Assembly: GCA_934098515.1 (NCBI GenBank)
Contig: CAKOOK010000002.1
Location: forward strand, 18,371 to 82,370
DNA: 64,000 nucleotides
Direction: 5' to 3'
DNA from: an uncultured Bacilli bacterium
GTDB taxonomy: Bacteria > Bacillota_I > Bacilli_A > RF39 > UBA660
This document shows positions 7,769-60,804 of the stretch, piece by piece. Below the pieces are notes generated by a model. It was given only the letters and a program-made list of their open reading frames with translations, was not told the DNA's origin and did not search any database. The translations under genes were made by a program, and so were the position numbers. How positions within the stretch are numbered: the stretch's first letter is position 1; every line of letters starts with the position of its first letter.

Positions 7769-7905
7769 AACATTACCTCCAAAATACCAATATCCCTTGT
7801 ATAAAAATTATAACATATTTTTCGACAAAATTTGATAATTTGCGACCAATTCATACCAGAAATTACTGAATTGTACGAACAATCTTGACTAATTTTTAAT
7901 TTTAA

Positions 7906-8262
7906 GTGATTAATACAAGGAATTTGAAGAATTGTCTGATTAGAAAATGTACTAACGAGGATATTTCTGATGAAGAATTAGAGAAAGTTATAAATCCTTT
8001 TTATGATAATTATCATAAGTATATTATTACATATGTTATGACTGAAGTAATTATATTTTATATAGCCAGTTCCTTTAGTAGGAATGCTATATGGGAAGCA
8101 ACATTTTATCATCACTATAATTCAGCTAAAGATATATTTAATGTCAGTGATGATGAAAATTATGAAAGTATTAAAGCTGAGGTAATAAAGTTATTAAGAA
8201 TGAAGTATTCTTTAGAAATTATTAGTGAAAATCCATTAGATCTTAAAAAAATTAAGTATTAG
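7906..8262 (+). CDS. hypothetical protein
   Basis: 118-aa ORF with no recognisable motifs. Accessory context. Confidence 0.3.
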   Translation: MINTRNLKNCLIRKCTNEDISDEELEKVINPFYDNYHKYIITYVMTEVIIFYIASSFSRNAIWEATFYHHYNSAKDIFNVSDDENYESIKAEVIKLLRMKYSLEIISENPLDLKKIKY

Positions 8263-8322
8263 TTTTTGTTCTAATACTCTTTTTATTATACAATTTATAA
8301 CTTTCAAGCAGTATATAATAAA

Positions 8323-8966
8323 ATGACAAAGTTTCAAGTTCCTAATGAGTGTAGAAAAGAAATGGCTTATTATACTTATGATAAAATTAAAAAGTTTATT
8401 TCTTATGAAGAAGATATAAGATGAAAATGTGTATTTGAAATATTATATTATTGTGACCTTCGTAAAGGAGAACTAAAAGGTCTTACTTGGAAGGATAATT
8501 ATTTTGATAAAAAAGTATTATCTGTTAATAAACAAATAACTCAACGAAATAATCGTGTTAAGTATGAATTTTCGGATACTAAAACAAGAGATAGTAGAAG
8601 AATAGTTTTCATTATTAAAGTCTTGTTAAATGAACTTAAAATGCTCTATGAACAGGATAAAAAAGAGTATTACGAATTTAATGATGATTTCTTTGTTGTA
8701 TCTGATGCTAAACCTATAGCTGATTCTAATATATATATCTTAGAAGAACTAAACTGGCTACATTAGCTGGTTTAAAGGTTATTAGGATCCATGATTTTAG
8801 ACATACGTGTGCATCACTACTTATTAACAATGGTGCTAATGCTACATTAGTTGCAAAATATTTAGGACATACAAAAATCGAGGAAACACTAAATACATAT
8901 TCACATATGTTTAGTACTGCCCTCGACTCTGTTGTTTCTGTTATAGATAGCTTAGAAGATGACTAA
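8323..8966 (+). pseudogene. Tyrosine recombinase/phage integrase remnant (5'-truncated, in-frame TGA at 8422-8424, frameshift near 8750)
   Basis: Translation gives ..LRKGELKGLTWKD.. then, after a frame switch, ..IRIHDFRHTCASLL..LGH..TYSH.. (HxxR box and catalytic Tyr). No SAM-like N-domain. Broken reading frame. Confidence 0.7.
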
Positions 8967-9907
8967 GCTATTTTTTTATTATATGTTCTACATTCAACTG
9001 GTTGCAAATATTGTTCTTCTGGTTCAACTCCATACATATCTGCTCTAAACTCTTCTAAATTTATCAACATTTTATTTAAAAATTTATTATTTATAATATA
9101 ACTTTTATAATCATCAGATTCCTTAATTTTAACATCAAATAATTCTTTTTGCAGTTCTAAAAGTTTTTCCAATACCACCGCTTCATTTCCTTCTCCATTT
9201 AAAAACAATTGAAAATGGTAACATTCCTCTTTCATTTTATTTAACATTTCAAATAAGGGTTGATATGTATTATTATGTATTTTTGTATAAGATTTTTCCC
9301 CTGAAAAAAACTGCATATCGCCTAACATAAAACTTAATTCAATAGTGCTTTCTTTTGATATACTTATATATTGTTCATATATTTCCTTTGCTTTATTTCT
9401 TAGCTTTTCAATATGTGTATCTACACACTCACTAGCATATATTTGTATAGATGTCTTAGATACTTTTTTTGCTAATTCAGGATGATTGTTAATATATTCT
9501 TTTATAAGAATATCTTTATATTTTTTATCTCCAATAATAATTTTATCTTTACTTATCTTATTGAATTTTTCTTTCCACTTTTTATTATTTAATTCATTTA
9601 TATATGAGATAACGGTATCTTTGCTATATTCATTAAATAAAAATTGCATATTAGAAAATTTTTCAATCAATCTTCTGGTTTCCTGCCAATATTTTTCTAA
9701 CAATTGTCTCTTACTAACATTATATGCTGGAATAGCTAGTAAAAGAGCTACGCATCCACTTCCAAATAAACCTATAAATATGTTTAATAATACTTCAAAT
9801 AATTTATTATCATAGTTTAATACTAAGAGAGTAAAAATTATTATTAAAACTAAAAAAATACTACTTATAATAATCGAAGCTTTTAATGCTCTACAATTTG
9901 CTTTCAT
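8963..9907 (-). CDS. hypothetical membrane protein (2 N-terminal TM helices plus long Lys/Glu-rich, probably coiled-coil cytoplasmic domain)
   Basis: 314-aa ORF. Hydrophobic segments at residues about 10-30 and 40-60. Start overlaps the stop of the upstream Zn-ribbon ORF (ATGA). Confidence 0.5.
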   Translation of the reverse strand: MKANCRALKASIIISSIFLVLIIIFTLLVLNYDNKLFEVLLNIFIGLFGSGCVALLLAIPAYNVSKRQLLEKYWQETRRLIEKFSNMQFLFNEYSKDTVISYINELNNKKWKEKFNKISKDKIIIGDKKYKDILIKEYINNHPELAKKVSKTSIQIYASECVDTHIEKLRNKAKEIYEQYISISKESTIELSFMLGDMQFFSGEKSYTKIHNNTYQPLFEMLNKMKEECYHFQLFLNGEGNEAVVLEKLLELQKELFDVKIKESDDYKSYIINNKFLNKMLINLEEFRADMYGVEPEEQYLQPVECRTYNKKIA

Positions 9908-10125
9908 TATTTTTCACCCTGAATATTACTAATAACATATTTAGATAATTCTTCATAATCACTTATATTTCCAATTCTTTTTAAATATTCATATCCACCA
10001 TCTATTGCAACTGCACCACATGAGCATCTTTTAAAATCATTAATATCTTTTGATTCAAGAATTGAACCACACTTTTTACATTTTATCTTGTTCAATTTTA
10101 TTATTTTTATTTCTTTATTTTCCAC
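9907..10125 (-). CDS. small zinc-ribbon protein (CxxC...CxC)
   Basis: 72 aa. CKKCGS...CSCGAV. Translationally coupled to the 314-aa membrane protein. Confidence 0.45.
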   Translation of the reverse strand: MENKEIKIIKLNKIKCKKCGSILESKDINDFKRCSCGAVAIDGGYEYLKRIGNISDYEELSKYVISNIQGEK

Positions 10126-10240
10126 AAAACATCACCCAAGAAATATTATATCATAACTATGCATTATGTATATTATACCGTTCGCGATATAATATATTTT
10201 ATTCAACAAAAAAAGAACATTAATTGCTCTTTTATGAGGT

Positions 10241-10359
10241 GTTCAGTTCTGTTCGGAGCTGTTCAATGTGTTCGCTCCTGTTCAGAGCTGTTCACTTCTG
10301 TTCAGTGGTGTTCAGTTCTGTTCAGAGCTGTTCACTTCTGTTCAAAGCTGTTCAGCCAA
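10241..10359. repeat. Tandem array of 12 x 10-bp units (GTTCAnnnnn) with 40-bp higher-order periodicity
   Basis: GTTCA at 10241, 10251, 10261, 10270, 10280, ... 10350 (step 10, one 9). 20-mer GTTCAGAGCTGTTCACTTCT exact at 10280 and 10320. Confidence 0.85.
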
Positions 10360-10360
10360 A

Positions 10361-11812
10361 TTATTGTTTTATGATATATTTTCCATAAGCGTCATTCTTT
10401 GTAGTACCAGTCCATATTATTAATTCTTTTTCTATTAATCTGTTTAGCAATGCTACAGCAGTAGTTTTACTTCTACCTATTATATTACTAATTTCTTCTC
10501 TTGTTGCTCCATTGTTATTAATAATAAATTCAATTGCTTTTTGCTCAGGATATGTTAATTGATTCCAAATATTTTTTACTGTTTCATTTGATGAAGCATT
10601 GTTTACATTAGATCTATTTTCTATATCATTATCCAAAACAAGCAATACTGAATTACGATCCGGTTCAGAATAATCTGGATCTTTCAAATTATAGTCATGC
10701 ATCTCTTTATAAATTCTTTTTACACCTTCATTTAATTCTCTTACAATGCCAAACTCAACTAATGCTCTTGCAATTTGTGGATTTCTTGAATATCTTTTTA
10801 CCTTCATTGTATCTAATGTTACAAAACCGCCAAGTTTACCAGGAGAAGATATTTCCATTCTATTATTATATATTTTCACTATTATTTGTTCACCACTATT
10901 AGAATAATCTCTATGAGTTACAGCATTAACGATTCCTTCATACCATGCAAATTCCGGATATTCAGGATGTTTTTCAAAAACACCATTTGAATTTAAATAA
11001 CTAAATTCTCTTAATTGCGAATTAATAAAATCCTTGGCTTCATTTAAAATTCTATATAAATTTTTATCAAAAGTCTTTTCTTTTATTACATTCATTGAAG
11101 TTCCAATTTGAAAATCATTACCTTCAAATTTAATTACTCTTAAACGAGAGCAAGGAAAATATATTGATGGATTTTTACCAAATAAAAGCATACCTGCATT
11201 AGTAAATTTTAATTCACCCTTAATTTCTCTAATATAACCTCTTGCTTTTAATACAGAAATATCATCAGCATCTGTATCAATTTTTTTCTTAAAAATACCA
11301 ACTACTTCTGTATCAATATCATCCATGCTAGAATCCCAAACAATTTGATTTTCAAAATTAGTTTCATTTCTATCATATTCTAAACTTTTTATTTGATCAT
11401 ATGTTAGTTTAATAGATGAGTCTCCTTGTCTACAATAAACCTCATCCTTAACGTTTCTAATTACTCTATTCATAGATGGTTCTACGTGATATAAAATTAT
11501 AATATCATCTTCATCTTTAGAATTATTAATATTTATTATCTCACAATTGCAAATTGGTGTCGGCTTTAAGTATGCTGAAACTATTTTCTGTGCTTCGTTT
11601 AATTTATCTATTCCATATTTGTTAAATCCTTCTATTTTTCCATTATCTGCAACACCAAGTGCTACTATTCCTCCTTGAGCATTAGCTAGTGCCATTACCT
11701 CATTAGCAACCGTTTTCAAATCTGTTTTACCAGATTTCCTTTCAAAATATAGATTTTCAGGTTGTTGCAAATATTCTATTGTGATTTTTTTGTTTATTTT
11801 AGATAAAGACAT
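10361..11812 (-). CDS. COG2865-type ATP-binding protein (AlbA_2/Schlafen-like divergent AAA domain + HATPase-like + C-terminal wHTH)
   Basis: 483 aa. N-term FERKSG...ANAQGGIVALGV typical of AlbA_2. C-term ..ATREEISNIIGRSKTTAVALLNRLIEKELI (HTH). Confidence 0.6.
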   Translation of the reverse strand: MSLSKINKKITIEYLQQPENLYFERKSGKTDLKTVANEVMALANAQGGIVALGVADNGKIEGFNKYGIDKLNEAQKIVSAYLKPTPICNCEIININNSKDEDDIIILYHVEPSMNRVIRNVKDEVYCRQGDSSIKLTYDQIKSLEYDRNETNFENQIVWDSSMDDIDTEVVGIFKKKIDTDADDISVLKARGYIREIKGELKFTNAGMLLFGKNPSIYFPCSRLRVIKFEGNDFQIGTSMNVIKEKTFDKNLYRILNEAKDFINSQLREFSYLNSNGVFEKHPEYPEFAWYEGIVNAVTHRDYSNSGEQIIVKIYNNRMEISSPGKLGGFVTLDTMKVKRYSRNPQIARALVEFGIVRELNEGVKRIYKEMHDYNLKDPDYSEPDRNSVLLVLDNDIENRSNVNNASSNETVKNIWNQLTYPEQKAIEFIINNNGATREEISNIIGRSKTTAVALLNRLIEKELIIWTGTTKNDAYGKYIIKQ

Positions 11813-19546: not shown

Positions 19547-20425
19547 CTAAAAATCTTTAATAATTATATCTTTATAATAATACTTAAGTATTTCCTTATA
19601 ACTATAACCATCTTTAGCAAGCAAATTAGCTCCGTTTTGACTCATACCAACACCATGTCCATACCCCTTAGTAGTAATGTTTACTTCATCCCCATTTATT
19701 TTTATCTCAAAATCAGTAGATCTTAAATTAAGTAATTTTCTTACCTCTACTCCTTTAAAACATTTATCTTTAACACACATCTGACTAACATGATTAGTAT
19801 CATTTCTCTTAATATCAAACCCATCAAGTGAACTTACTCCTAACTTACTTAATATATCACTAAGTTTATAATTCTTACTAACCTCATAATTATTTAAATT
19901 AACCTCTAAAAGTGATGGTACACTTTCTATATCATTAGTTCCAAAAACCTCTACAGAATTTTCTGTATATCCATTACTCATTGCAAAATAAAATGTCTTC
20001 ATAATACTATCATTCTTATAAATTACCTCATTACCTGTCTCATTTACTGCATTTATTACTTTTTCATAATACTTATTAAAGTCATCACCCCATCTTTTTT
20101 TTAATTCATAAATATCCAAATAAGCCTGAGCATTCAAATTTGTACTATATAAATTATCACTATCTTTAGAACTTAATAAATAACTTCTTGCAGCAACCGA
20201 CTGTGCTTTTAAAGCCTCATCATTAAATAAAGCCGGCATTTCTGCCGCAACTACTCCAAACACATAATCATTAACATCTAAATATAAATTTCTATCTTGC
20301 AAATTTACAATTTTTGTATTTTTAGAAGTATTTTCATCAATAAAAAAAGTAGCTTTTCTTTTAAACCAAAAACTACATATACTGCATGGAATCAAAAACG
20401 TAATAACAAGTAAAAGTTTTTTCAT
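19547..20425 (-). CDS. spoIID: Stage II sporulation protein D (SpoIID/LytB family lytic transglycosylase)
   Basis: 292 aa. Signal peptide. ..EALKAQSVAARSY.. SpoIID motif. Confidence 0.7.
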   Translation of the reverse strand: MKKLLLVITFLIPCSICSFWFKRKATFFIDENTSKNTKIVNLQDRNLYLDVNDYVFGVVAAEMPALFNDEALKAQSVAARSYLLSSKDSDNLYSTNLNAQAYLDIYELKKRWGDDFNKYYEKVINAVNETGNEVIYKNDSIMKTFYFAMSNGYTENSVEVFGTNDIESVPSLLEVNLNNYEVSKNYKLSDILSKLGVSSLDGFDIKRNDTNHVSQMCVKDKCFKGVEVRKLLNLRSTDFEIKINGDEVNITTKGYGHGVGMSQNGANLLAKDGYSYKEILKYYYKDIIIKDF

Positions 20426-23300: not shown

Positions 23301-23825
23301 TTATCTAAATTTTTCAATTATGCTCTTTACAAAAAATTTATATTCAACATCGCTTGTCGTTTCATTTTCTTCCATAAGACAAAGTGGAGGAAATAGAACA
23401 CACCACCAGTTATCACCTTCTCCATCACCCAAAGTAACAACTAATGAATTATAATACCCGCCATCATACACTATACCTTTATAAGTTTTACTTGGAAAAT
23501 AATTCATTCCATAACTAACAGTAAAATTATCACTCATTAAATTCTGCTTTATTAACCCATTTATATTATCAACTTCACTTGACACAATTTTTTCTGCTTC
23601 ACCAACCGTACTAGCACTCACCACTTTATCATATAAATAATCTTCTAATTTTCTCTTTAAATTTAACTTAGTTTTAATATCACCAGGAGCATTGCTATTA
23701 CTAACTACTCTAAATCTAATTGATGAACTAGGAATAACAACTGATTCATTCTTACTTTTATTAAGTACGCCCACCGAAATAACAGCAGCTGTTATTATTA
23801 ACAATTTCTTCATAAAAAAAATCAC
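23301..23825 (-). CDS. spoIIR: Stage II sporulation protein R (SpoIIR)
   Basis: 174 aa. Signal peptide. Conserved DNWWCVLFPPLC motif. Confidence 0.7.
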   Translation of the reverse strand: MIFFMKKLLIITAAVISVGVLNKSKNESVVIPSSSIRFRVVSNSNAPGDIKTKLNLKRKLEDYLYDKVVSASTVGEAEKIVSSEVDNINGLIKQNLMSDNFTVSYGMNYFPSKTYKGIVYDGGYYNSLVVTLGDGEGDNWWCVLFPPLCLMEENETTSDVEYKFFVKSIIEKFR

Positions 23826-26611: not shown

Positions 26612-28525
26612 ATGAAAAAACTAAAATTTATATATAAATTAACTATCTTTTTGATGATAACATTTACAGTAATTATCTCTTGTCTTTACACATACGCCTA
26701 CTTCAGTCCCAAAATAACCCTAAACTCTGCAAATGCATTATCTCTATATGATAATGAAAACAATCTAATTCTGCAAACAAGTAACAACAAAAAATGGGCT
26801 AATATAAATGAAATATCTAATGACTTAATAAACGCAACAATTTCTGTTGAAGATAAAAACTTTTACCATCACTTTGGCTTTGACTATTTAAGAATCATAA
26901 AATCACTATATTTAAACGCTAAAACTAAATCTATAACAGCTGGAGCATCAACTATCTCTCAACAGTACGTTAAAAACTTATTTTTAGACTTCGATCAAAC
27001 CTGGAAAAGAAAAATTAAAGAAGCTATGCTAACTCTAAATCTAGAAGTTCACTACTCAAAAAAAGAAATACTAGAAGGCTATCTTAATACAATAAATTAT
27101 GGTCAAGGAAACTTTGGTATCGAAAATGCTAGTAACTATTACTTTAATAAAAAAAGTAGTGAACTTACCCTAGAAGAGGCAATTATCCTCGCCGGTATAC
27201 CTAAAAGTCCAGAAAACTATAACCCAGTAAGTAACTATGACGCCTCCATTAAAAGAGCAAAAATCGTTGCTAAAGCAATGTACAAAAATAAAAAAATTGA
27301 TGAAGAAACTTACAAAAATCTATTTTCTAAAAAAATTAATATTTACGGTCAAAGAAAAACAAATAACATGCAAACCTTAATGTATTATTATGATGCTGTC
27401 TTAAATGAACTAAATAGTATTCCAAATATTCCCAAAGACTTAATTAAATCAAAAGGTCTAAAAGTATATACAAACCTCGATATAAATGCTCAGCAAAAAC
27501 TAGATAATACTTTTAAAGAAAATGAAAATAAAGATAACATTGAACTTGCAGCAATAATGGCTGAACCATCTACTGGAAAAATATTCGCTCTTGCTGGTGG
27601 TCTAAACTACTCTAAAAGTCAGTTTAATCGTGCAATCTTTGCTAAAAGACAAGTCGGTTCAACTATTAAACCATTTCTCTACTACGCAGCATTAAACAAT
27701 AACATGACCGAAGCAAGTACATTTAAAAGTGAAGAAACAAGTTTCGTCTTTGCAGAAAATAAAAAATATACACCCAAAAACTACAGTAACATCTACGCAG
27801 ATAAAAACATTACTATGGCAGCCGCTCTAGCCTATTCAGACAATATTTATGCCGTAAAAACCCATTTATTCATCGGAACAGAAGAATTAGTAAACACTTT
27901 AAAAGAAGCTGGCCTAAAAAAAGAAATAGATGCATTCCCAGCCTTAGCTCTTGGTGCAGTTGAACTAAACTTATTAGATTACGTCGAAACATATAACACC
28001 CTAGCAAACTATGGCACATATAAAGACTTATACTTCATCGAAAAAGTCGAAGACTATGAAGGTAACCTTATATATAAGCATAAAAATGAAACAAAAGACG
28101 TACTAAACAAAGATAACGTATTCATTATAAACGAAATGCTTACAAACACGTATAATGCCTCTTTTATTGACTACCAATCACCAACAATAATTTCACTAAA
28201 TAGTAGACTAACTAAAAAATACGCCATCAAAAGTGGTACAACAGATAACGACTATCTAGTTATTGGCTATAACCCTGACGTTTTAATGTTCGTATGGGCA
28301 GGCTCTGATTACAATGGAACAGTACCTAAAGCATATTCATCTAAAATAAAAAATATTTGGTGCGATAACGTCGAAGAATATCTTAAAGATAAAGAATCAA
28401 TATGGTATACTCCTAGTGATAATATAATTGCAGTTCCTCTAGACCCAATAAGCGGTAAAGCAGCAGAATCTAACAAAAACATTCTATATTATTTCAAACG
28501 TGGTACAGAACCAATAACTAACTAA
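26612..28525 (+). CDS. Class A penicillin-binding protein (glycosyltransferase + transpeptidase)
   Basis: 637 aa. N-terminal TM. GT51 motifs (SVEDKNFYHHFG). TP motifs STIKP, YSDN, KSGTT. Confidence 0.8.
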   Translation: MKKLKFIYKLTIFLMITFTVIISCLYTYAYFSPKITLNSANALSLYDNENNLILQTSNNKKWANINEISNDLINATISVEDKNFYHHFGFDYLRIIKSLYLNAKTKSITAGASTISQQYVKNLFLDFDQTWKRKIKEAMLTLNLEVHYSKKEILEGYLNTINYGQGNFGIENASNYYFNKKSSELTLEEAIILAGIPKSPENYNPVSNYDASIKRAKIVAKAMYKNKKIDEETYKNLFSKKINIYGQRKTNNMQTLMYYYDAVLNELNSIPNIPKDLIKSKGLKVYTNLDINAQQKLDNTFKENENKDNIELAAIMAEPSTGKIFALAGGLNYSKSQFNRAIFAKRQVGSTIKPFLYYAALNNNMTEASTFKSEETSFVFAENKKYTPKNYSNIYADKNITMAAALAYSDNIYAVKTHLFIGTEELVNTLKEAGLKKEIDAFPALALGAVELNLLDYVETYNTLANYGTYKDLYFIEKVEDYEGNLIYKHKNETKDVLNKDNVFIINEMLTNTYNASFIDYQSPTIISLNSRLTKKYAIKSGTTDNDYLVIGYNPDVLMFVWAGSDYNGTVPKAYSSKIKNIWCDNVEEYLKDKESIWYTPSDNIIAVPLDPISGKAAESNKNILYYFKRGTEPITN

Positions 28526-28535
28526 AAAAGCAAGC

Positions 28536-29774
28536 CTACTCAGCTTGTTTTTCTATCTTTATAATCATCTGATACAAATCTTCAAAATCAAAATCTTCAC
28601 TAGAAACATTATATCCTGCTTCCTTTAATTCGTTAACAAAATCATTATAAGCCTCTTTAACAGAATCTAAATTATTTTCTAAAATTCTCTTCTTTGGAGG
28701 TTCTACCGGTTTTTCTTCTTCTTTTTTAACTTCTTCAAGTGGAACATCAAGACTTTCTAATGGTACATCTTTACTAATAGTACTACTACTATTAAATGGA
28801 TTAAACTCTTCCAATCTATCCATAGGCTCCATATTCATATTAGTAACTTCATCCTCTAAAGATGGATACTCTGGAGTATTATTACTAAAATTAAATAAAT
28901 TAAATCCTGGACTTGGTTGTGTTTTTTCTTTTTTAACATCTGATTCATTTATAGGATCTTCTGCCATTAAATCAAGAGTTTCCGTTTTCTCTTCTTTTGC
29001 TGGTTCAGAATTAAATATATTATCAGAATTATCAAATATATTGGTAGATTCATCAACTTTAGGAGCATTATCTAACACGCTTAAATTTTCAACTGGAGTA
29101 CTAACATCACCTAAATCTTCATAAGCAGGTGCCTCACTTATAACTGGTTCACTTACTAAATTACTTTCCTTCTTTATCTCATCATCTAACTGTCTAACAG
29201 TAAGTCTTTCAGAAATAACCTTATTTAATAAAGCCTTCTGCTTCTCAGGATCAGTTACACTAAGTAAACTTCTCGCATGTCTTTCACTAATTTTATCATT
29301 CATGAGTGCATCTTGCGCTTCACTAGTTAAATTCAATAATCTTAACTTATTTGCAATCGTTGACTGTGAAACTCCAATTTTCTTAGCAAGTTCATCTTGC
29401 GTTAAACCTTCCTTATCAAGAATCTTCTTATAACTCTTAGCTTCCTCTAGTGAATTTAAATTTCTTCTTTGAACATTTTCAACTAAAGCAATTTCAGCAC
29501 TCTTATTATCATCAATATTAGAAATTATTGCTGGAACTTCAGTTAACCCAGCAAGTTGTGCAGCCTTATAACGTCTTTCACCTGCAATTATCTCATATTT
29601 ATCCCCAAGTCTTCTTAATACAAGTGGCTGAATAATACCATGCTCTTTAATTGATGAAGCAAGCTCATTTAAAGACTTCTCATCAAAAGTAAGTCTAGGC
29701 TGAAACCTATTTGGAATAATATAATCTATATTAACATTTTGTATTAACGGCTCTCTATTCATAAAACAACCCAT
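28536..29774 (-). CDS. ParB/Spo0J/Noc-family protein with about 200-aa acidic low-complexity C-terminal extension; no adjacent parA
   Basis: ParB N-domain (..IIPNRFQPR.., IQPLVLRR..YEIIAGERRYKAA), HTH (LTQDELAKKIGVSQSTIANKLRLL). Sits next to rsmG as noc does in Bacillus. Confidence 0.75.
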   Translation of the reverse strand: MGCFMNREPLIQNVNIDYIIPNRFQPRLTFDEKSLNELASSIKEHGIIQPLVLRRLGDKYEIIAGERRYKAAQLAGLTEVPAIISNIDDNKSAEIALVENVQRRNLNSLEEAKSYKKILDKEGLTQDELAKKIGVSQSTIANKLRLLNLTSEAQDALMNDKISERHARSLLSVTDPEKQKALLNKVISERLTVRQLDDEIKKESNLVSEPVISEAPAYEDLGDVSTPVENLSVLDNAPKVDESTNIFDNSDNIFNSEPAKEEKTETLDLMAEDPINESDVKKEKTQPSPGFNLFNFSNNTPEYPSLEDEVTNMNMEPMDRLEEFNPFNSSSTISKDVPLESLDVPLEEVKKEEEKPVEPPKKRILENNLDSVKEAYNDFVNELKEAGYNVSSEDFDFEDLYQMIIKIEKQAE

Positions 29775-35829: not shown

Positions 35830-36203
35830 CTCCACATCAAATTTAGCGTTTTTATTATATTATATTAAAGGCTGCAAGTCAATAAAAAGTTAACCTTCAA
35901 TTTATTAAAAAAATATCAAATAAAAAAATCTAACAAAAAATATAATTTTTAAATTTATAAAAAAGCAAAATTAGTAAATCCTAAATTATCAAAAAGTGGA
36001 AAATGTTTATATCTTTTTTTATTGTTAATTGTAATTTGTGGATATTGTTGAAAACTCACTCTAGACTATATAAATAAAAGGTTTGCATGTTGATAAAATG
36101 TTGAAAAAATTGTCGAATTTAATTTTTTTCATTTTCTCTCTTTATTTTTCCACAGACTTGATTTAAAATAGAACTATCAAAAACGAAGGACCGGGGTGAG
36201 GTA
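35830..36203. promoter_or_regulatory. oriC (rpmH-dnaA part): AT-rich unwinding region with DnaA-box-like 9-mers
   Basis: TGTGGATAT (about 36039), TTTTCCACA (36147-36155), AGTGGAAAA (about 35994). Further box-like TGTGGAGAA in the dnaA-dnaN spacer (about 37606). Confidence 0.6.
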
Positions 36204-37556
36204 ATGAAACATAATGTAAATTGGAATGATATTCTAGAAGTAATACAAAGCAAACTAAATCCATTATCTTATGATACCTGGTTCAAAGAAACTAAACTAA
36301 TTGGCATTAAAAACAATACCATACAAATAGAAGTTCCAATGGAATTTCATAAAAAAATTCTTAATCAAACATATTATGATTTAATCGAAGAAATAGTAAG
36401 TACAGTAACCGGAACATCTTATGACATTGAATTCTTATCATCAGAAGAAATAAAACCTCTTGAAATCCTTGAATTAGATAAAGTAGAAGAGCCAGAAAAT
36501 GAGAATTTAAATTCAAACCTTAAACCAGAATACACATTCGAAAATTTTGTAATAGGGGATAGTAATAGATTTGCTCAACTAGCAGCACTAGCCGTAGCAG
36601 AACAACCAGGAAAAATCTATAACCCATTATTTATATACGGTAAAAGTGGCCTAGGAAAAACCCACTTAATGCATGCAATCGGTAACTATATAGTACAAAA
36701 ATCAAATAAAAAAGTTCTATACGTTACAAGTGAAGAATTCATATCAGACTTCATTGGAATTAATAAAAAAGACGAAAACAACTACGATATAGTAAGTCAA
36801 TTTAAAGAAAAATATCGAAACATAGATATCTTAATGATAGATGACATCCAGTTCCTTGGTGGAGCAGCTAAAACTCAGCAAGAATTCTTCCATACATTTA
36901 CAAATCTCTATGACTCAAATAAACAAATTATTATTAGTTCAGACCGTTCCCCAGACGACTTAAAACTTCTTGAAGAGAGGTTACTAACAAGATTTAGATG
37001 GGGGCTAACAGCTAACATCGAACCACCAGATTTTGAACTTAGATGTAAAATTCTTAAAGATAAAATGACTGGACACGAAGTTGCTAAAATGGTTCCAAAT
37101 GAAGTAATAGAGTACATTGCAACAAACTGTGAAAACGATGTTAGACACTTAGAAGGTGCTATAACAAGACTATATGCTTATGCAGCAATGATGGGCCCTA
37201 AAGAAATTAACCTTGAATTTGCCGTAGATGCCCTTAAAGATTACATTGGTAAATCAATATATATAACCAACGACATTCAAAAAATTCAAAAAGCCGTCGC
37301 TGATTACTATCACATAACAATTGAAGATTTAAAAAGTAAAAAAAGAACATCAAACATCAATTATCCAAGACAAATTGCTATGTATCTGTGCCGAATGACA
37401 ACATCTGAAACAATCATAAAAATAGGACTAGAATTTGGTAATCGTGATCATTCGACAGTTTTACACTCATATGATAAAATAAATAATGAAATTCAAAATG
37501 ATGAAAACAACATAAGACAAGTAATAGAGGATATAAAAAACAAAATTGTTAATTAA
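36204..37556 (+). CDS. dnaA: Chromosomal replication initiator DnaA
   Basis: 450 aa. AAA+ GKSGLGKTHL. C-terminal DNA-binding domain. Confidence 0.95.
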   Translation: MKHNVNWNDILEVIQSKLNPLSYDTWFKETKLIGIKNNTIQIEVPMEFHKKILNQTYYDLIEEIVSTVTGTSYDIEFLSSEEIKPLEILELDKVEEPENENLNSNLKPEYTFENFVIGDSNRFAQLAALAVAEQPGKIYNPLFIYGKSGLGKTHLMHAIGNYIVQKSNKKVLYVTSEEFISDFIGINKKDENNYDIVSQFKEKYRNIDILMIDDIQFLGGAAKTQQEFFHTFTNLYDSNKQIIISSDRSPDDLKLLEERLLTRFRWGLTANIEPPDFELRCKILKDKMTGHEVAKMVPNEVIEYIATNCENDVRHLEGAITRLYAYAAMMGPKEINLEFAVDALKDYIGKSIYITNDIQKIQKAVADYYHITIEDLKSKKRTSNINYPRQIAMYLCRMTTSETIIKIGLEFGNRDHSTVLHSYDKINNEIQNDENNIRQVIEDIKNKIVN

Positions 37557-37669
37557 AAAAGTTTTGCACAAACAATACACATCAAATTTTTCCCATAATT
37601 GTGGAGAAAAAAAGACTTATTAACATTTTCAACAGCAATAATAATAAAAAAAAGAAAGAAGGAATAAAA

Positions 37670-38816: not shown

Positions 38817-38824
38817 GTGCATAA

Positions 38825-38851
38825 TTCGACATTTTTCGACAAATTTCGACA
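38825..38851. promoter_or_regulatory. Three direct TTCGACA repeats (= Spo0A-box TGTCGAA on the opposite strand) at exactly 10-bp phasing
   Basis: TTCGACA at 38825, 38835, 38845. Located 40-70 bp upstream of the comK-like start. Confidence 0.5.
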
Positions 38852-38891
38852 AACCACCTGTGCTATAACTAAAAGCAAGGGGGTGAAGTAC

Positions 38892-39335
38892 ATGAAAGAT
38901 TACAATATTAATAAAAACACACTTGCACTAATGCCATATGGTAAAAACAAATCATTAGTTTTTGAAAAACACAAATATTATATAGTTAACCAAAAAGTAA
39001 ATAAACTAATGGATGAAAGTTGTCGTTATAACGGAAGCACCATTGAAGGAAGAGCTAAAGGAACAGAATCGTTAACAGGAATTTCTTATAAAGCTCCAAT
39101 TATTGTTAAAGAAGAAGAGAATATTATATTTTTTCCAACGTGCTCACCAAGGCTAAAAGAATGTTCTTGGATTAATGCAGGTAATATCAGTAATATCTAT
39201 AAGAAAAAAGACCGATGTTTAGTTGAATTTTATAACAAAGAAACTTTAGAATTTGATATATCTTATAACATTATGAATAATCAATTAAGCAAATCACTAT
39301 TATTAGAAAAAAAGTTTAAAAAAAGAGGCAAATAA
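38892..39335 (+). CDS. ComK-like competence transcription factor homologue
   Basis: Aligns with B. subtilis ComK core (..DESCRYNGSTIEGRAKGTE..KAPIIV....IFFPTCSPRLKECSWIN..). Strong SD AAGGGGGTG. Confidence 0.55.
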   Translation: MKDYNINKNTLALMPYGKNKSLVFEKHKYYIVNQKVNKLMDESCRYNGSTIEGRAKGTESLTGISYKAPIIVKEEENIIFFPTCSPRLKECSWINAGNISNIYKKKDRCLVEFYNKETLEFDISYNIMNNQLSKSLLLEKKFKKRGK

Positions 39336-42460: not shown

Positions 42461-44914
42461 ATGGATCATAGTAGAGACAGATTAGAAGAAAATAACATAG
42501 TAAATGAAGTAAAAACATCCTTCTTAGAATACTCAATGAGCGTCATAGTATCACGTGCGCTTCCAGACTTAAGAGATGGTTTAAAACCAGTTCATAGAAG
42601 AATTCTTTACTCAATGTACGAATCAGGTTACACTCCAGATAAACCGCATAAAAAGAGTGCAAGAATTGTCGGAGACGTAATGGGAAAATACCATCCACAT
42701 GGAGACTCAAGTATATATGAAGCAATGGTAAGAATGGCCCAAGATTTCAGCTACAGATACATGCTAGTTGATGGACACGGAAACTTTGGTAATATCGAAG
42801 GATATGGCGCAGCAGCAATGCGTTACACCGAATCAAGACTCTCAAAAATATCCCTAGAATTATTAAGAGATATCAAAAAAGATACAGTTAATTTTACACC
42901 GAACTTCGATGAAAGTGAAAAAGAACCAACAGTTTTACCATCAAGATTCCCAAATATCCTAGTAAATGGAACAATGGGTATCGCAGTAGGTATGGCCACA
43001 AATATTCCACCTCATAACTTAGGTGAAGTAATCGACGGCTGTATAGCATATATAGATAACCCAGACATCGACGTTCTAGGTCTAATGAATCATATTAAAG
43101 GCCCAGACTTTCCTACAGGAGGCATAATACTAGGTAATAGTGGAATCAAACAGGCATATGAAACAGGAAAAGGCACTATAACAATTAGAAGTAAAGCCCA
43201 AATTGAAGAAAAAAATGGCAAACATTACATAATTATTGATGAAGTTCCATATGGAGTTAATACCTCAGAACTTAAAAATAAAGTCGCCGAATTAGTTCAT
43301 AATAAGACAATTGAAGGCATTGCAGACTATCATACAGACCTAAAAGAAGGTATTAAAATAACAATAACTCTAAAAAAAGATGCTAATGCCCAAGTTGTTC
43401 TAAATAAACTATTTAAGCATACACAATTTCAAACAAATTACGGAATAAGCTTCTTAATGTTGGATAATGGCGTGCCAAAAACCCTTGGACTAAAAGAAAT
43501 AATTGAAAAATATATTAATTATCAAAAAGAAATAATCGTAAGAAGAACCAAATTTGACTTAGATAAGGCCGAAAAACAAGTACATATCTTAGAAGGCTTA
43601 AAGATTGCATTAGACAACATAGATGCTGTAATAAAGACTATTAAAGAATCAAAAAGCGATGATGTAGCAAAAGAAGCCTTAATGAAACGCTTTGGCTTAA
43701 CATTAATTCAATCAGAAGCAATTTTAGAGATGAAACTACGTAGATTAACAGGCTTAGAAAGAGACAAAATAGAAGCAGATCTTAACGAATTACATAAATT
43801 AATAGCTGAATTAAAATCAATTTTAGAAAGCGAAGCAAAAGTGCTACAAATTATTAAAGATGAGTTAATCGAAATCAAGAATAAATATGGTGATGAAAGA
43901 AAGACATCTATTGATATGACTGCTATAGACTATATTGAGGATGAGTCACTAATTCCTGAAGAAAACATCATAGTTACAGTAACAAAGAACGGTTATATTA
44001 AGAGATGTACGTCTGACACTTATAAAATTCAAAATCGTGGTGGCGTAGGTGTAAAGGGAATGTCAACCAATGACGAAGATTTTGTGGAATACTTACTAAA
44101 TCTATCAACTCATGACTATATACTGATATTTACCAATAAAGGTAAAGTATATAGATTAAAAGGATATGAAATACCTGAATTTAGTAGACAATCAAAAGGA
44201 TTACCAATAATTAACGTATTACCTGTGGAAAAAGATGAGAAAATAAGTAGTATAATAAAATTAAATGTGGAAAACCAAGAAAAATACTTAATTCTAGCTA
44301 CAAAACAAGGCTTAATCAAACGTACAAACCTAGAAGAATTTGAAAATATTAGAACAACCGGAAAAATTTGTATAAAACTAAAAGAAAACGACGAACTAAT
44401 AGGTGTTAAAAAAACAAATGGTGAATCCAATATCCTATTAGCATCTTCTGAAGGTAGAATGAATGTCTTTGATGAAAATGAAATCAGAGTTATGGGAAGA
44501 ACAGCTTCCGGTGTTAAAGGTATCAATCTAGGAAGTGCTGAATGTGTAAGCATAGAAAATGTAAAAGACGATGATAATATAGTAATAGTAACCGAAAATG
44601 GTTATGGTAAAAAAACATTAATTTCTGAATACAGAAAGACAAAACGAGGAAGCAAAGGTGTAAAAGCTCTAAATATTACTGAAAAGAATGGAAATATAGC
44701 AAGTATTAAAAAGGTTATTGATGATTCAGACATCATGATTATTACAAATCAAGGAATAATCATTAGATTACCATTAGAACAAGTATCACAATTAGGTAGA
44801 GTTACCCAAGGTACAAGACTGATTAATCTAAAATCAGGACAAAAAGTATCATCTGTAAGTATTGTTCAGAAAGAGAAAGAACAAGAAGAAGAAATTTTTG
44901 AAAAAAACGAATAG
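42461..44914 (+). CDS. gyrA: DNA gyrase subunit A
   Basis: 817 aa. Catalytic-Tyr region [24 protein letters not shown]-terminal beta-pinwheel repeats. Confidence 0.95.
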
Positions 44915-44936
44915 TTTAACTATTCGTTTTTTTATG
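44907..44936 (+). terminator. Intrinsic terminator of gyrA
   Basis: ACGAATAGTTtaaCTATTCGT + T7, overlapping the gyrA stop. Confidence 0.6.
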
Positions 44937-45277
44937 TTTCACGTGAAACATAAAAAGTAAAGAGATAGCACTTATGAACAATGTTTCACGTGAAACTTTT
45001 TAATCGAAGCCTTTAAAACTATATATAAAATAGTAAATATAATTAAATATTTTAAAGATATCAACATTCAGATGTTTCACGTGAAACATCTGAATGTTCA
45101 CTTTAAATAGAATTAACAGTCATCAACATAATTATGAAAAACTGAATTTTAGATTAAAAGATATAAACATAGTTTCACGTGAAACCTTTAAAACATTGCG
45201 TAATTAATCCAATAACAACAATAATAAAAAAATCAACAATTAATATTTATCAACAATGTTTCACGTGAAACATTGTT
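44934..45277. repeat. Five dispersed copies of palindrome GTTTCACGTGAAAC (extended to 18, 26 and 36 bp in three copies)
   Basis: Cores at 44936, 44983, 45075, 45172, 45259. 36-bp perfect palindrome at 45063-45098, 26-bp at 45252-45277. Confidence 0.85.
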
Positions 45278-45326
45278 TAATAACAATATAAGTTGCATCA
45301 AAGATATAAGTATGATAACATTTAAT

Positions 45327-45406
45327 TGTGCAATATTTATGCAATAAACTGGTCAGATTCGGAAGAAAGCAGCCACATTTGCCTCTAAATATGTGCACTT
45401 TTTTTA
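45327..45406 (+). ncRNA. ffs: Small SRP RNA (ffs/scr), short 4.5S-like form; boundaries approximate
   Basis: GGTCAGATTCGGAAGAAAGCAGCCA matches the universal domain IV motif. Closing helix GTGCAATATTTA/TAAATATGTGCAC, then T7. Confidence 0.55.
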
Positions 45407-45416
45407 AGGAAAAATT

Positions 45417-45866: not shown

Positions 45867-47525
45867 ATGGCATATAAAGTACTTTACAGAAAATATAGAC
45901 CACAAAACTTTAATGATTTATATGGTCAAGATTCAATAAAAGAAATACTTAAAGATTCTATAATAAACAATAAATTAGCACATGCTTACTGCTTTAACGG
46001 CCCAAGAGGAACCGGAAAAACCTCAACAGCAAAACTATTTGCAAAAGCAATTAACTGTGAAAATGCTAAAGATGGAATTGCATGTGGTGAATGCAACTCA
46101 TGTAAAAATTTTAATGAGAACCCAGATATAATTGAAATAGATGCTGCATCAAATAATGGTGTAGAAGAAATAAGAGAACTTCGCGATAACGTAAAAATTC
46201 TTCCTTCAAATTCAAAATATAAAATATATATAATTGATGAAGTACACATGCTATCACAAAGTGCGTGGAACGCCTTTCTAAAAACTTTAGAAGAACCACC
46301 AAAGCATGTCATATTCATTTTAGCAACTACTGAAATTCAAAAGGTTCCAATAACTGTTTTATCTAGATGTCAAAGATTTACCTTTAGAAAAATACCTAAA
46401 AATATAATATGCGAAAGAATCTTATCAATTGCTAAAGAAGAAAATATTGAAATTGACGAATCAGCTGCCGAATATATTGCAGACCTAGCAGACGGTGGAA
46501 TGAGAGATGCTTTAGGATACTTAGACCAATTATCAAAAGAAAATAAAAAAATAACAACCGAGATTATTCAAAACTGTTTTGGTGTCATAGGCGATTCAAC
46601 AATAGAAGAAATATTTTTAACAGCAAAAGAGGAAAATCTAGAAAATTTGCAAAATATATTTAATGACATATCTAATCAGGGACTTGAAGTGAATTTATTA
46701 ATTTCAAAAATATTAAATTATCTATATAATGAAGAGATAAAAATACTTCAAAACAAAGTTTCAGTATTTAATAATCTACAAACGATTAAAGAACTAGCTT
46801 TTGAAATATCGAACTGTTACTTAAAAAAAGATGCTCTTACTTTAATAAAAATAGTTATATTAAGTAAAATAAAAACTCAAAATGGAATAGAAACAATTAA
46901 AAATACAGATAAAATTATTTCCCGGGAAATAATTTCTAAAGAAATAAACAACAAAATGTCTCCTAAAACAAATACTATTATAGAAATTCAAAGTAATAAA
47001 GCACAATCAAAAGAAATTACAAAGCCTTCAAAGACGGTAGTAATAACTTCACGTAGTGATGAAGAAATAAATAGATTAAAAATAATAAGAATAAATAATG
47101 TATTTATAACTGCCAGTAAAATTAATAAAGAGACTTTTAATACAAACTGGGATGATTTAAAAAAAGATATTAAATATAAAAATAGCGATTTATATTCAAA
47201 AATTGAAGATGCAGAAGTAGAAATAGTTTCAGACGATATTGCAGTATTATCACTAAATACAGAAACTGCAGTATATTTATTTAATTCAAATCTTGAAACT
47301 ATTGAAGAAGAATATAATATGAAATTTAATAAAAAATATAAAATAATTTGCCTACTAAAGCAAGAATGTACTAACGCAAAAAAAGAATATATCAAAAATA
47401 AAAGTAAAAAATATATTTATATGGAAGAAAACTTAGCAGAACCAGCATCAAAAGAAAACACTACTGAAGAAAATAACAATAGTGCACTTGAAATATTTGG
47501 CAAAGATTTAATAGAAATAAAATAG
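45867..47525 (+). CDS. dnaX: DNA polymerase III subunits gamma/tau
   Basis: GPRGTGKTS Walker A, zinc module CGECNSC, SRC motif. Confidence 0.9.
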   Translation: MAYKVLYRKYRPQNFNDLYGQDSIKEILKDSIINNKLAHAYCFNGPRGTGKTSTAKLFAKAINCENAKDGIACGECNSCKNFNENPDIIEIDAASNNGVEEIRELRDNVKILPSNSKYKIYIIDEVHMLSQSAWNAFLKTLEEPPKHVIFILATTEIQKVPITVLSRCQRFTFRKIPKNIICERILSIAKEENIEIDESAAEYIADLADGGMRDALGYLDQLSKENKKITTEIIQNCFGVIGDSTIEEIFLTAKEENLENLQNIFNDISNQGLEVNLLISKILNYLYNEEIKILQNKVSVFNNLQTIKELAFEISNCYLKKDALTLIKIVILSKIKTQNGIETIKNTDKIISREIISKEINNKMSPKTNTIIEIQSNKAQSKEITKPSKTVVITSRSDEEINRLKIIRINNVFITASKINKETFNTNWDDLKKDIKYKNSDLYSKIEDAEVEIVSDDIAVLSLNTETAVYLFNSNLETIEEEYNMKFNKKYKIICLLKQECTNAKKEYIKNKSKKYIYMEENLAEPASKENTTEENNNSALEIFGKDLIEIK

Positions 47526-50161: not shown

Positions 50162-50837
50162 AAATACAACAGTTCTAAACGATTTATATGATACAGGATT
50201 TAAAATTTATCAAAATGATGAATATTTTAAATTTTCTTTAGATTCATTGCTTCTAGCAAAATTTGTAAATCCAGATTATAAAGATAAAAAAATCCTAGAC
50301 CTTTGCACTGGTAATGCTCCAATTCCTATAATTTTATCATCAAATAAGAATTTTGAAATAACTGGAATTGAAATACAAAAAGAAATTTATCATTTAGCAG
50401 TTGAATCTATAAAAATTAATAATATAAAAAATGTGAATATTATAAACGATGACCTAAAAAAGCTTAAAAATTATTTCCCGGGAAATAATTTTGATATAAT
50501 TACCTGCAATCCACCATACTTTAAAGTGGAAAAAGAGTCATTATTAAACAAAAATGAAATTAAATCAATAGCAAGACATGAAATACATATAACGTTAGAA
50601 GAAATTATAAAAATCTCACATAGTATGCTAAAAGACAAAGGTAAACTATATATAATTCATAGAACAGATAGAATGATTGAATTAATAAACCTTCTAACAA
50701 AATATAAATTTGGTATTAAAAGAATGCAAATTATATATCCAAACGAACATAGTAATGGTTCTATGATAATTTTTGAAGCTAAAAAAGATTGCAAACATGA
50801 TGTCAAAATATTGTCACCTATATTTACAAACATATAG
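50151..50837 (+). CDS. SAM-dependent methyltransferase, YabB/TrmN6-like
   Basis: LDLCTGN and CNPPYF motifs. Confidence 0.65.
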   Translation: MMNKNTTVLNDLYDTGFKIYQNDEYFKFSLDSLLLAKFVNPDYKDKKILDLCTGNAPIPIILSSNKNFEITGIEIQKEIYHLAVESIKINNIKNVNIINDDLKKLKNYFPGNNFDIITCNPPYFKVEKESLLNKNEIKSIARHEIHITLEEIIKISHSMLKDKGKLYIIHRTDRMIELINLLTKYKFGIKRMQIIYPNEHSNGSMIIFEAKKDCKHDVKILSPIFTNI

Positions 50838-59148: not shown

Positions 59149-59931
59149 GTGAATCATATGAATTTTCAAAAAGGAGACTTTGTAACCCGAAAAAGTTATA
59201 ATAATGATACAATATTTAAAATACTAAATATTAAAGAAAATATATGCTACTTAAAAGGAATAGACGTCAGACTATATGCAGATGCCGAAAAAACTGATTT
59301 AGTTTTAGTAAATAAAAAAAGTGAAGATAAATTTGGCGAAAACATTGAAGACTTCAAAGCTCTAGATCGCAGCAATTACTTTTACATGCCACCCAAAATA
59401 ATGCAAATAGATGGAGACAAAGACTATCTCACACGTTGTTTAAACTTTTATAAGAAATATAATTTACAAGCAATAGGTAAAGTATTACAAGAAGAAGAAC
59501 TACCATTAAAAATAGAAGAATTATTAAAAGAATACACACCAGACATAATAATCATAACCGGCCATGACGCATACTATTCAAAAAAAGGAAACAAAAACGA
59601 TATAAATAACTATCGTAACTCCAAATATTTTTGTGAGGCGGTTAAAAAAGCAAGAAAATACGAAAAAGATAACAATAAACTAATCATAATAGCTGGTGCT
59701 TGTCAAAGTGATTATGAAGAACTTTTAAAATGTGGGGCAAATTTTGCATCAAGTCCAAAAAGAATAAATATTCATGCGCTAGACCCAGCAATAATTGCAA
59801 CATCAATAGCTCTAACCGAAAAAGGAGAAGTAATAGATTTACTATCAGTACTAAATAAAACAAAATATGGAGCAGACGGCATAGGGGGAATTAAATGTAA
59901 TGGCTTAATGTTCGTGGGGTATCCAAGATGA
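59149..59931 (+). CDS. yabG: Sporulation-specific protease YabG
   Basis: N-term ..GDFVTRKSYNNDT.F.I.. and ..IITGHDAY.. match the YabG family. Confidence 0.7.
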   Translation: MNHMNFQKGDFVTRKSYNNDTIFKILNIKENICYLKGIDVRLYADAEKTDLVLVNKKSEDKFGENIEDFKALDRSNYFYMPPKIMQIDGDKDYLTRCLNFYKKYNLQAIGKVLQEEELPLKIEELLKEYTPDIIIITGHDAYYSKKGNKNDINNYRNSKYFCEAVKKARKYEKDNNKLIIIAGACQSDYEELLKCGANFASSPKRINIHALDPAIIATSIALTEKGEVIDLLSVLNKTKYGADGIGGIKCNGLMFVGYPR

Positions 59932-60522: not shown

Positions 60523-60804
60523 ATGGATAAAATAATAGACGTACCTGCATTAAACCACATAATTAAACTTACAGATCGCAAAAACATTATTATAAGTGGT
60601 ATAAAAAAAATAAACAGCTTTGATGAAAAAGAATTTGACCTAGACAGTATAATGGGAAATATTATAATTAAAGGCTCAAATTTAGAAATGATAAAACTAG
60701 ATACAATTGAAGGAAACGTATCAATAAAAGGTCAGATTAACAGCTTCACTTACAGTGATACAAATGATAAAGAATCTTCTATTTTAGCCAAACTATTTAA
60801 ATGA
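60523..60804 (+). CDS. yabP: Sporulation protein YabP
   Basis: 93 aa. Conserved yabP-yabQ-divIC arrangement. YabP-like beta-rich sequence. Confidence 0.55.
   Translation: MDKIIDVPALNHIIKLTDRKNIIISGIKKINSFDEKEFDLDSIMGNIIIKGSNLEMIKLDTIEGNVSIKGQINSFTYSDTNDKESSILAKLFK

Follow-up and report, generated by a model that had tools for sequence, protein, structure and literature searches.

The stretch of DNA analysed here (the window, 64 kb in length) comes from a low-GC (28.5%) uncultured gut bacterium whose DnaA is 99% identical to that of UMGS1021, and it is a classical Firmicute origin region. The gene order on the minus strand is mnmE-mnmG-rsmG followed by a gene of the ParB family; then comes rnpA, after which the plus strand carries dnaA-dnaN-comK-recF-gyrB-gyrA, followed by the intergenic array that is the subject of this work and then by the SRP RNA gene and tadA-dnaX-ybaB-recR. 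The landmarks needed to place the array are the following:

36037..36154, no strand assigned: DnaA boxes ATATCCACA, TTATCAACA and TTTTCCACA in the rpmH-dnaA spacer, the conventional location of oriC
36204..37556, plus strand: dnaA (gene annotation)
44901..44940, plus strand: intrinsic terminator of gyrA, a perfect inverted repeat of 16 nt (44901-44916 / 44918-44933) with a T-run after it
45322..45407, plus strand: small SRP RNA gene (Rfam RF00169, 55.5 bits), the right boundary of the array

The array lies 7.4-9 kb from dnaA, the DnaA-box spacer and the switch in gene orientation, and its description as origin-proximal rests on these three features and not on nucleotide skew. At dnaA, neither the GC nor the AT skew of third codon positions reverses its sign in the sub-lineage to which the window belongs (window positions 12000-60000; among the loci of relatives, which are numbered with the prefix L, also L016, L004, L012, L045 and others). 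On both arms the bottom strand of this sub-lineage is rich in G+T, over a distance of at least 84 kb, and the skew of head-on genes follows the strand rather than the gene (the PBP gene at 26612-28525; YfhO in L016). Other members of the clade have the classical skew pattern. Judged from these skews, the sub-lineage of the window may have a displaced origin or may replicate asymmetrically.

Several further features of the region were recorded. In the bipartite oriC of B. subtilis a second module of DnaA boxes and unwinding sequence lies between dnaA and dnaN; the corresponding spacer in the window (37556-37601, at most about 45 bp) is too short to hold such a module, so the origin architecture in the clade may differ from the Bacillus model. 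A comK homologue (38817-39335, plus strand; Pfam ComK, 137.7 bits) lies between dnaN and recF, a position which is conserved across the clade (L031, L033, L041, L047, L063, L065, L066, L073, L075). Genes for sporulation (spoIID, spoIIR, yabG and yabP, with spoVG and veg in L016) and for the cell wall (a class A PBP, a MurA-type enzyme and FemAB) were placed at 19547-20425, 23301-23825, 59149-59931 and 60523-60804 and in L016; the lineage, of which the MAGs are deposited as “uncultured Tenericutes” (in some records “Bacilli”), is evidently a walled member of the Bacilli and is probably spore-forming. A defence island to the left of recG (3325-11812, minus strand) varies between strains, as seen by comparison with L020-L023. 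It contains a type III restriction-modification system (Mod at 5879-7768, Res at 3325-5889) and a Schlafen/AlbA_2-HATPase protein (10361-11812), with UvrD-like and DUF3800 genes beyond the window; in the strain variant L023 the outer part of the island is missing and its place is taken by gmk and smc.

Five palindromes between gyrA and the SRP RNA gene

The palindrome GTTTCACGTGAAAC occurs five times within 44935-45272, with starts at 44936, 44983, 45074, 45172 and 45258. The first-pass annotation, which had been made by a reader of the letters of the window, had the count and the location of these copies right, as well as the flanking features (the end of gyrA at 44914 and the SRP RNA gene at 45322-45407), and it placed the third and fifth copies one base too high. 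The spacing, which it rightly called irregular and gave as 47, 92, 97 and 87 bp, is 47, 91, 98 and 86 bp from start to start. Five copies compare with 0.09 expected by chance, a count of five is reached in none of 100 shuffles, and no further match is present in the 64-kb window even if two mismatches are allowed, which bears out the earlier claim that the motif is found nowhere else in this stretch.

When GTTTCACGTGAAAC is lengthened by one base on each side it becomes TGTTTCACGTGAAACA, which matches the parS consensus TGTTNCACGTGAAACA over 16 bp. This consensus, found in B. subtilis and in many other phyla, is the binding site of ParB/Spo0J (PMC7022226). The 16-mer is perfect at 44935, 45073 and 45257 and has one mismatch at 44982 and two at 45171, and the 14-bp core is perfect in all five sites:

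44935..44950, no strand assigned: parS copy 1, TGTTTCACGTGAAACA, perfect; inside a 28-bp perfect palindrome
44982..44997, no strand assigned: parS copy 2, TGTTTCACGTGAAACT, one mismatch
45073..45088, no strand assigned: parS copy 3, perfect; centre of a 36-bp perfect palindrome at 45063-45098
45171..45186, no strand assigned: parS copy 4, AGTTTCACGTGAAACC, with a perfect 14-bp core and two outer mismatches
45257..45272, no strand assigned: parS copy 5, perfect; inside a 26-bp palindrome

In the first-pass annotation the motif had been matched to none of the common Firmicute operators. It is the canonical site of ParB/Spo0J (consensus TGTTNCACGTGAAACA; PMC7022226), and this identity was missed because the motif had been compared with transcription-factor operators. 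The related site NBS, bound by the paralogous protein Noc in B. subtilis, is not matched: its core ATTTCCCGGGAAAT has A1 and C6 in each half-site, and the five sites have G1 and A6 and therefore differ from it at both specificity positions. The palindromes are thus very probably a chromosomal parS centromere array, that is, a set of predicted ParB/Spo0J binding sites. Since the motif is parS, it is to be regarded as a chromosome-segregation element and not as a transcriptional operator or the mark of a new regulon. The earlier suggestion of a dense operator array for a dimeric regulator was essentially right in that dense sites for a dimeric protein lie near oriC, and wrong in that these sites are parS.

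Three of the copies lie in longer palindromes. The first-pass annotation had measured those around copies 3 and 5 correctly, at 36 and 26 bp, and had given 18 bp for that around copy 1, which extends over 28 bp. Such extensions are about twice as common as in a null model with shuffled flanks. They are not kept at orthologous positions in relatives and so are unlikely to be a selected structure; selected hairpins or cruciforms were rejected on this ground, and the extensions are more likely a mutational by-product of palindromes.

The sites were also considered as intrinsic terminators and rejected, as the earlier annotation had maintained. A T-run is present only at the separate gyrA hairpin (44901-44940), of which the stem (44901-44933) directly adjoins copy 1 and lies outside the parS sites. 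A terminator scan flagged copy 3, on the minus strand only, owing to its 36-bp palindrome, an extension which is absent in the orthologues. The gyrA terminator forms the left boundary of a gap that is predicted to be free of read-through transcription.

The array in related lineages

The first-pass annotation had proposed that the motif be counted in related species and that the genes downstream be listed. Among relatives recovered through DnaA, all whose locus reaches that far carry 3-6 parS sites just after gyrA, and a scan of metagenomes added about 45 contigs with the context gyrA-array-tadA-dnaX. This gives a total of 51 distinct arrays at the gyrA-tadA position, with 2-11 parS sites each, in a low-GC clade of uncultured gut Bacilli. 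When strains with 98-99% identical DnaA are compared, the parS columns are 96-98% identical and the spacers, which are full of indels, 71-77%. As judged from these alignments, the 16-bp core is under strong purifying selection while its flanks diverge.

No parS site is present elsewhere in about 84 kb of the species (the window and 10 kb beyond each end). Wherever flanking genes could be identified on a clade contig, they place the sites in the gyrA-tadA-dnaX region. The contigs off that region which bear composites of parS with a second site, described below, are three of high GC, at chance level, and a few short ones without identifiable flanking genes. The conservation of parS, the contrast between sites and spacers, and the restriction to a single locus within these sequences together exclude chance, a REP-like element and a dispersed regulon.

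These results bear directly on two alternatives. According to one of them, the palindromes are a selfish repeat family of REP or MITE type that has accumulated here, a reading which the first-pass annotation had entertained in the form of a dispersed REP-like element. The variation in copy number between strains by recombination and the twofold excess of extended palindromes would both suit such a family. It is nevertheless extremely unlikely, since there are zero copies elsewhere in the 84 kb, since the position is strictly conserved in relatives, with composite-bearing clade contigs confined to the gyrA-tadA-dnaX region save for the short ones without identifiable flanks, and since a strongly conserved 16-bp core stands between diverging flanks.

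According to the other, the palindromes, with their E-box-like CACGTG core, serve as operators at which an unrelated dimeric transcription factor regulates the SRP RNA gene or the tadA-dnaX operon. In its favour, about 22 bp separate copy 5 from the putative -35 element of the SRP RNA gene downstream (a promoter read from the sequence), and ParB-bound parS can itself influence neighbouring promoters. Against it, the match to parS extends over all 16 bp, the motif is found at one locus only, and arrays of 2-11 copies, which in L027 place parS sites on both sides of tadA, fit a nucleation array rather than operators positioned at promoters. The operator reading is therefore given very little weight, and the identification of the sites as parS is retained.

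The copy number of the array is itself subject to change. Copy 2 of the window (44982-44997) is a recombinant which combines the left flank of the second unit of relatives with the right flank of their third unit (compared with L004, 18780-18900), so that the five-copy array of the window is derived from a six-copy array by recombination between two parS sites. It follows that copy number, here from six to five, changes through homologous recombination between parS sites.

In six loci (L056, L038, L057, L059, L069 and L035) the array takes the form of tandem 84-bp repeats, equal to eight helical turns, with up to 11 parS sites; in L056 the parS starts run from 7000 to 7829 in locus coordinates. 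Behind each parS in these arrays, at a distance of 1 nt, stands an inverted TTATCAACA box, and the whole has a plasmid-like centromere architecture on a chromosome. Helical phasing of the sites in the window was considered and rejected, as the spacings of 47, 91, 98 and 86 bp show none; only the lineages with 84-bp tandem repeats are phased. Tandem-repeat centromeres of plasmids, such as the 12 x 43 bp sopC of F, consist of ParB-type sites arrayed head to tail with a regular period. The clade arrays resemble them in being head-to-tail arrays of ParB-type sites, and differ in that they are chromosomal, consist of the universal chromosomal parS, are irregularly spaced in the window, and adjoin no parAB operon.

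Among chromosomal systems, B. subtilis has 10 parS sites and S. pneumoniae has four, the latter with a ParB-parS-SMC system that operates without ParA (PMC7022226). The array shares with the parS/ParB systems of Firmicutes an identical 16-bp palindrome, a position near dnaA and the presence of SMC, and it shares with S. pneumoniae the circumstance that no ParA gene was found near dnaA. It differs from Firmicute systems in that the window sites are packed into one intergenic array of 340 bp, while Firmicute parS sites are scattered over tens to hundreds of kb and often lie inside genes, and in that no canonical parB was found next to rsmG or dnaA.

DnaA boxes beside parS

The gyrA-side flank of most parS copies carries the sequence T-T-A-T-C-[C/A]-A-C-A, a DnaA box, one base from the 16-mer. 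The box variants that adjoin parS (ATATCCACA, TTATCAACA and TTTTCCACA) are those of the oriC spacer of the window. Within the window the following matches are found:

44972..44980, plus strand: weak DnaA-box-like 9-mer TTATGAACA, which differs from TTATCCACA by two mismatches and stands 1 nt ahead of copy 2; relatives have TTTTCCACA at the orthologous position
45058..45066, plus strand: DnaA-box-like ATATCAACA, two mismatches, 6 nt upstream of copy 3
45247..45255, plus strand: DnaA box TTATCAACA, one mismatch, 1 nt upstream of copy 5; the variant is also present in the oriC spacer

Only the last of these lies within one mismatch of TTATCCACA, and the remainder in the array have two or three, so that the window array does not count as a DnaA-box cluster. 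Relatives do have such clusters, with three boxes each in L013, L006 and L011 and four to five perfect boxes in L025, L046 and L061. As far as can be read from these matches, the coupling to DnaA boxes is partly eroded in the window and is weaker there than in relatives.

In the clade as a whole, about a third of the parS sites abut an oriented DnaA box at a fixed gap, which is 1 nt or sometimes 3 nt. A box in register with at most one mismatch accompanies 60 of 259 sites on one side and 29 of 257 on the opposite side; the background is 3e-4. If the sites which had been selected by the scan pattern are removed, 25 of 134 (19%) still carry a box, compared with about 0.1 expected, and all 25 boxes lie at offset -11 or -13 and point towards the parS site. 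Boxes inside one array share their orientation, with 1-3 per array on one strand versus 0.1-0.3 expected. In one sub-lineage the association extends to a 46-bp module, NBS-att-TTATCCACA-a-parS (sequence TATTTCCCGGGAAATAATTTTATCCACAATGTTTCACGTGAAACA), which is repeated 4-5 times with unrelated spacers of 270-420 bp between the repeats. Outside the clade only 3 of 49 composite hits were found (GC 45-54%), which is about the chance level. The motifs with which DnaA reads its box, YPRQIAMYL and GNRDHSTVLH, are kept. The association is not universal: the parS arrays of L014, L034 and L041 have no box in register, so that parS is the constant element of the arrays, with the boxes as a facultative one.

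Comparable arrangements are known from other bacteria. Clusters of DnaA boxes near the origin act synergistically with Spo0J in B. subtilis (PMC3245932). The clade arrays resemble these clusters, and datA of E. coli, in that consensus DnaA boxes are clustered near oriC and outside it; they differ in that each box stands at a set distance of 1 nt (sometimes 3 nt) from a parS site, with one orientation per array, and in that the boxes of the window are largely degenerate. In Caulobacter crescentus, DnaA binds a DnaA box within the parS region and thereby links initiation with segregation (Mera et al. 2014; PMC6399470), but that centromere belongs to a different phylum and has no repeated composite module, and DnaA binding has been demonstrated there while it is predicted here. 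Literature searches found no published report of a fixed module of DnaA box and parS. It is the composite architecture of DnaA box and parS, in some cases with NBS, that is new; the parS motif itself is known and ordinary.

Since an oriented DnaA box directly adjoins many parS sites of the clade, DnaA is probably bound at the locus as well. A stronger version of this idea would make the region primarily a DnaA-box cluster, of the datA or DBC type or as part of the origin, with parS as a secondary component. The excess of oriented boxes on one strand, the perfect TTATCCACA boxes in the modules of some lineages and the fact that such clusters are typically origin-proximal in Firmicutes (PMC3245932) speak for it. 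However, the window retains a single box within one mismatch while all five of its parS cores are perfect, and the three lineages without in-register boxes keep their arrays. The possibility that the array is itself a replication origin was rejected, since the sign of the GC3 skew is constant across it in all lineages. A primary role as a DnaA-box cluster is thus unlikely.

The Noc-like protein and the predicted role of the locus

The question of which protein reads the array leads to the ParB-family gene downstream of rsmG and to the NBS sequences of the region:

28536..29774, minus strand: Noc-like ParB-family gene, 412 aa, downstream of rsmG, with a GERRYKA motif of the CTP-binding type
46916..46931, no strand assigned: perfect NBS TATTTCCCGGGAAATA, inside dnaX and kept in relatives
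50472..50487, no strand assigned: second perfect NBS (sequence match)

The protein scores 283 bits on the Noc model, and its best solved relatives are Noc structures (203 bits, versus 159 for Spo0J of B. subtilis). Its DNA-binding specificity residues are Q-K-N-R, with K171 replaced by V, and a long acidic low-complexity linker precedes a short C-terminal domain; most relatives have 330-350 aa. One homologue, from a Bacilli MAG, is named “ParB/RepB/Spo0J family partition protein” by NCBI. In variants of this protein family Q173 reads A1 and R201 reads C6 of NBS, provided that one lysine is present at 179 or 184, and parS-specific variants invariably have R173 (PMC7383237). All of the at least 120 homologues listed carry Q173 and R201, and it is predicted from these residues that the Noc-like protein reads NBS and not parS.

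The locus resembles the Noc/NBS system of B. subtilis in having a paralogous protein family and a related palindrome, with a perfect NBS and a Noc-like gene downstream of rsmG in the window. The amphipathic N-terminal helix which Noc needs for membrane binding and nucleoid occlusion (PMC8429893) is not present in the local protein, in which the ATG is preceded by a stop codon at a distance of two codons, and the short N-termini of the listed homologues likewise leave no room for it. In this the protein differs from Noc of B. subtilis, the function of which is defined by the membrane-targeting helix (PMC8429893). The arrangement of the sites differs as well, since NBS is arrayed with parS in some relatives and is scattered round the chromosome in B. 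subtilis. The perfect NBS of the window are situated to the right of the parS array, within 5 kb of it; NBS is found inside the array in L011 (19133) and L012 (19135), and in L025, L046 and L061 it precedes every parS at a fixed offset of 29 bp. A count over 575 kb of clade DNA gave 249 cores of pure parS type and 85 of pure NBS type, with not one hybrid between them, which argues for two separate readers.

Searches for a second reader gave the following results. A phmmer search that used the Noc-like protein as query and covered every six-frame ORF of the window and of the related loci detected no second homologue, and a search of the same sequences for the Walker A motif of ParA found none. 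Neither ParA nor a canonical ParB (R173/G201 type) was found in the window or 10 kb beyond each end, or in relatives within 10 kb of dnaA or noc, the long contigs of distant homologues included. When databases were queried with the N-terminal and DNA-binding domains, the at least 120 matches listed were all Noc-like orthologues. Within about 84 kb of dnaA the Noc-like gene thus stands alone as a member of the ParB family, as it does in every relative examined; the species also encodes SMC (L023). Unannotated small ORFs in the vicinity of noc were considered as alternative parS binders, and no DNA-binding family matched any of them. One of them, of 144 aa, we take on reading its translation, and with no match to that family by any tool, to resemble an RpoE-type protein (the delta subunit of RNA polymerase) with an acidic tail.

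It might be supposed from this that the sites are read by the Noc-like paralogue next to rsmG, either with dual specificity for parS and NBS or after loss of canonical ParB, and that this protein acts as the centromere clamp. Its status as the sole ParB-family gene near dnaA, its lack of the helix required for nucleoid occlusion (PMC8429893) and the clustering of NBS beside or inside parS arrays, with the fixed 29-bp offset in one sub-lineage, would all be in keeping with such a role. The Q173/R201 pair in every listed homologue stands against it, given the invariable R173 of parS-specific variants (PMC7383237), as does the separation of the cores into two discrete classes, since one tolerant reader of both would not be expected to keep them apart. 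This supposition is judged to be quite improbable, and the preferred reading remains that the array is a set of sites for ParB/Spo0J.

If the array is a parS centromere of this kind, a ParB-CTP clamp would load at each parS and slide onto the flanking DNA, and the resulting partition complex, built about 7-9 kb from dnaA, would recruit the SMC condensin and mark the origin-proximal region for segregation. The process would probably need no ParA, as in Streptococcus pneumoniae. The array occupies the gap, predicted to be free of read-through, between the gyrA terminator and the SRP RNA promoter. DnaA binding at the adjoining boxes could couple the availability of the initiator to the centromere, either through a DnaA-titrating cluster of boxes or through mutual control of ParB loading and DnaA binding.

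A more far-reaching proposal, which is put forward tentatively and extrapolates from the geometry of the sites, is that the region is a composite “origin-organising” locus at which DnaA, ParB and a helix-less Noc paralogue load side by side and control one another. DnaA might, for example, block or gate ParB-CTP clamps in one direction, or the titration of DnaA might be under the control of ParB and Noc clamps. In its extreme version canonical ParB would be absent and the Noc-like protein would have taken over the centromere function, in which case the strand-fixed GC3 skew of the sub-lineage of the window might reflect an altered use of the origin.

Work on how bacteria bring replication initiation (DnaA) into step with segregation (ParB/SMC) and with the control of the division site (Noc) has so far relied on diffusible intermediaries such as Soj or on genetic synergy between loci that lie apart. 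In the clade described here the three types of site occur clade-wide at fixed distances that are precise to the base pair, and the 46-bp module is a compact substrate for in vitro tests, with which cooperation, exclusion or roadblocking between DnaA, ParB and the Noc paralogue would be directly testable. The tandem lineages indicate in addition that chromosomal centromeres can take a plasmid-like form, with up to 11 sites at a period of 84 bp.
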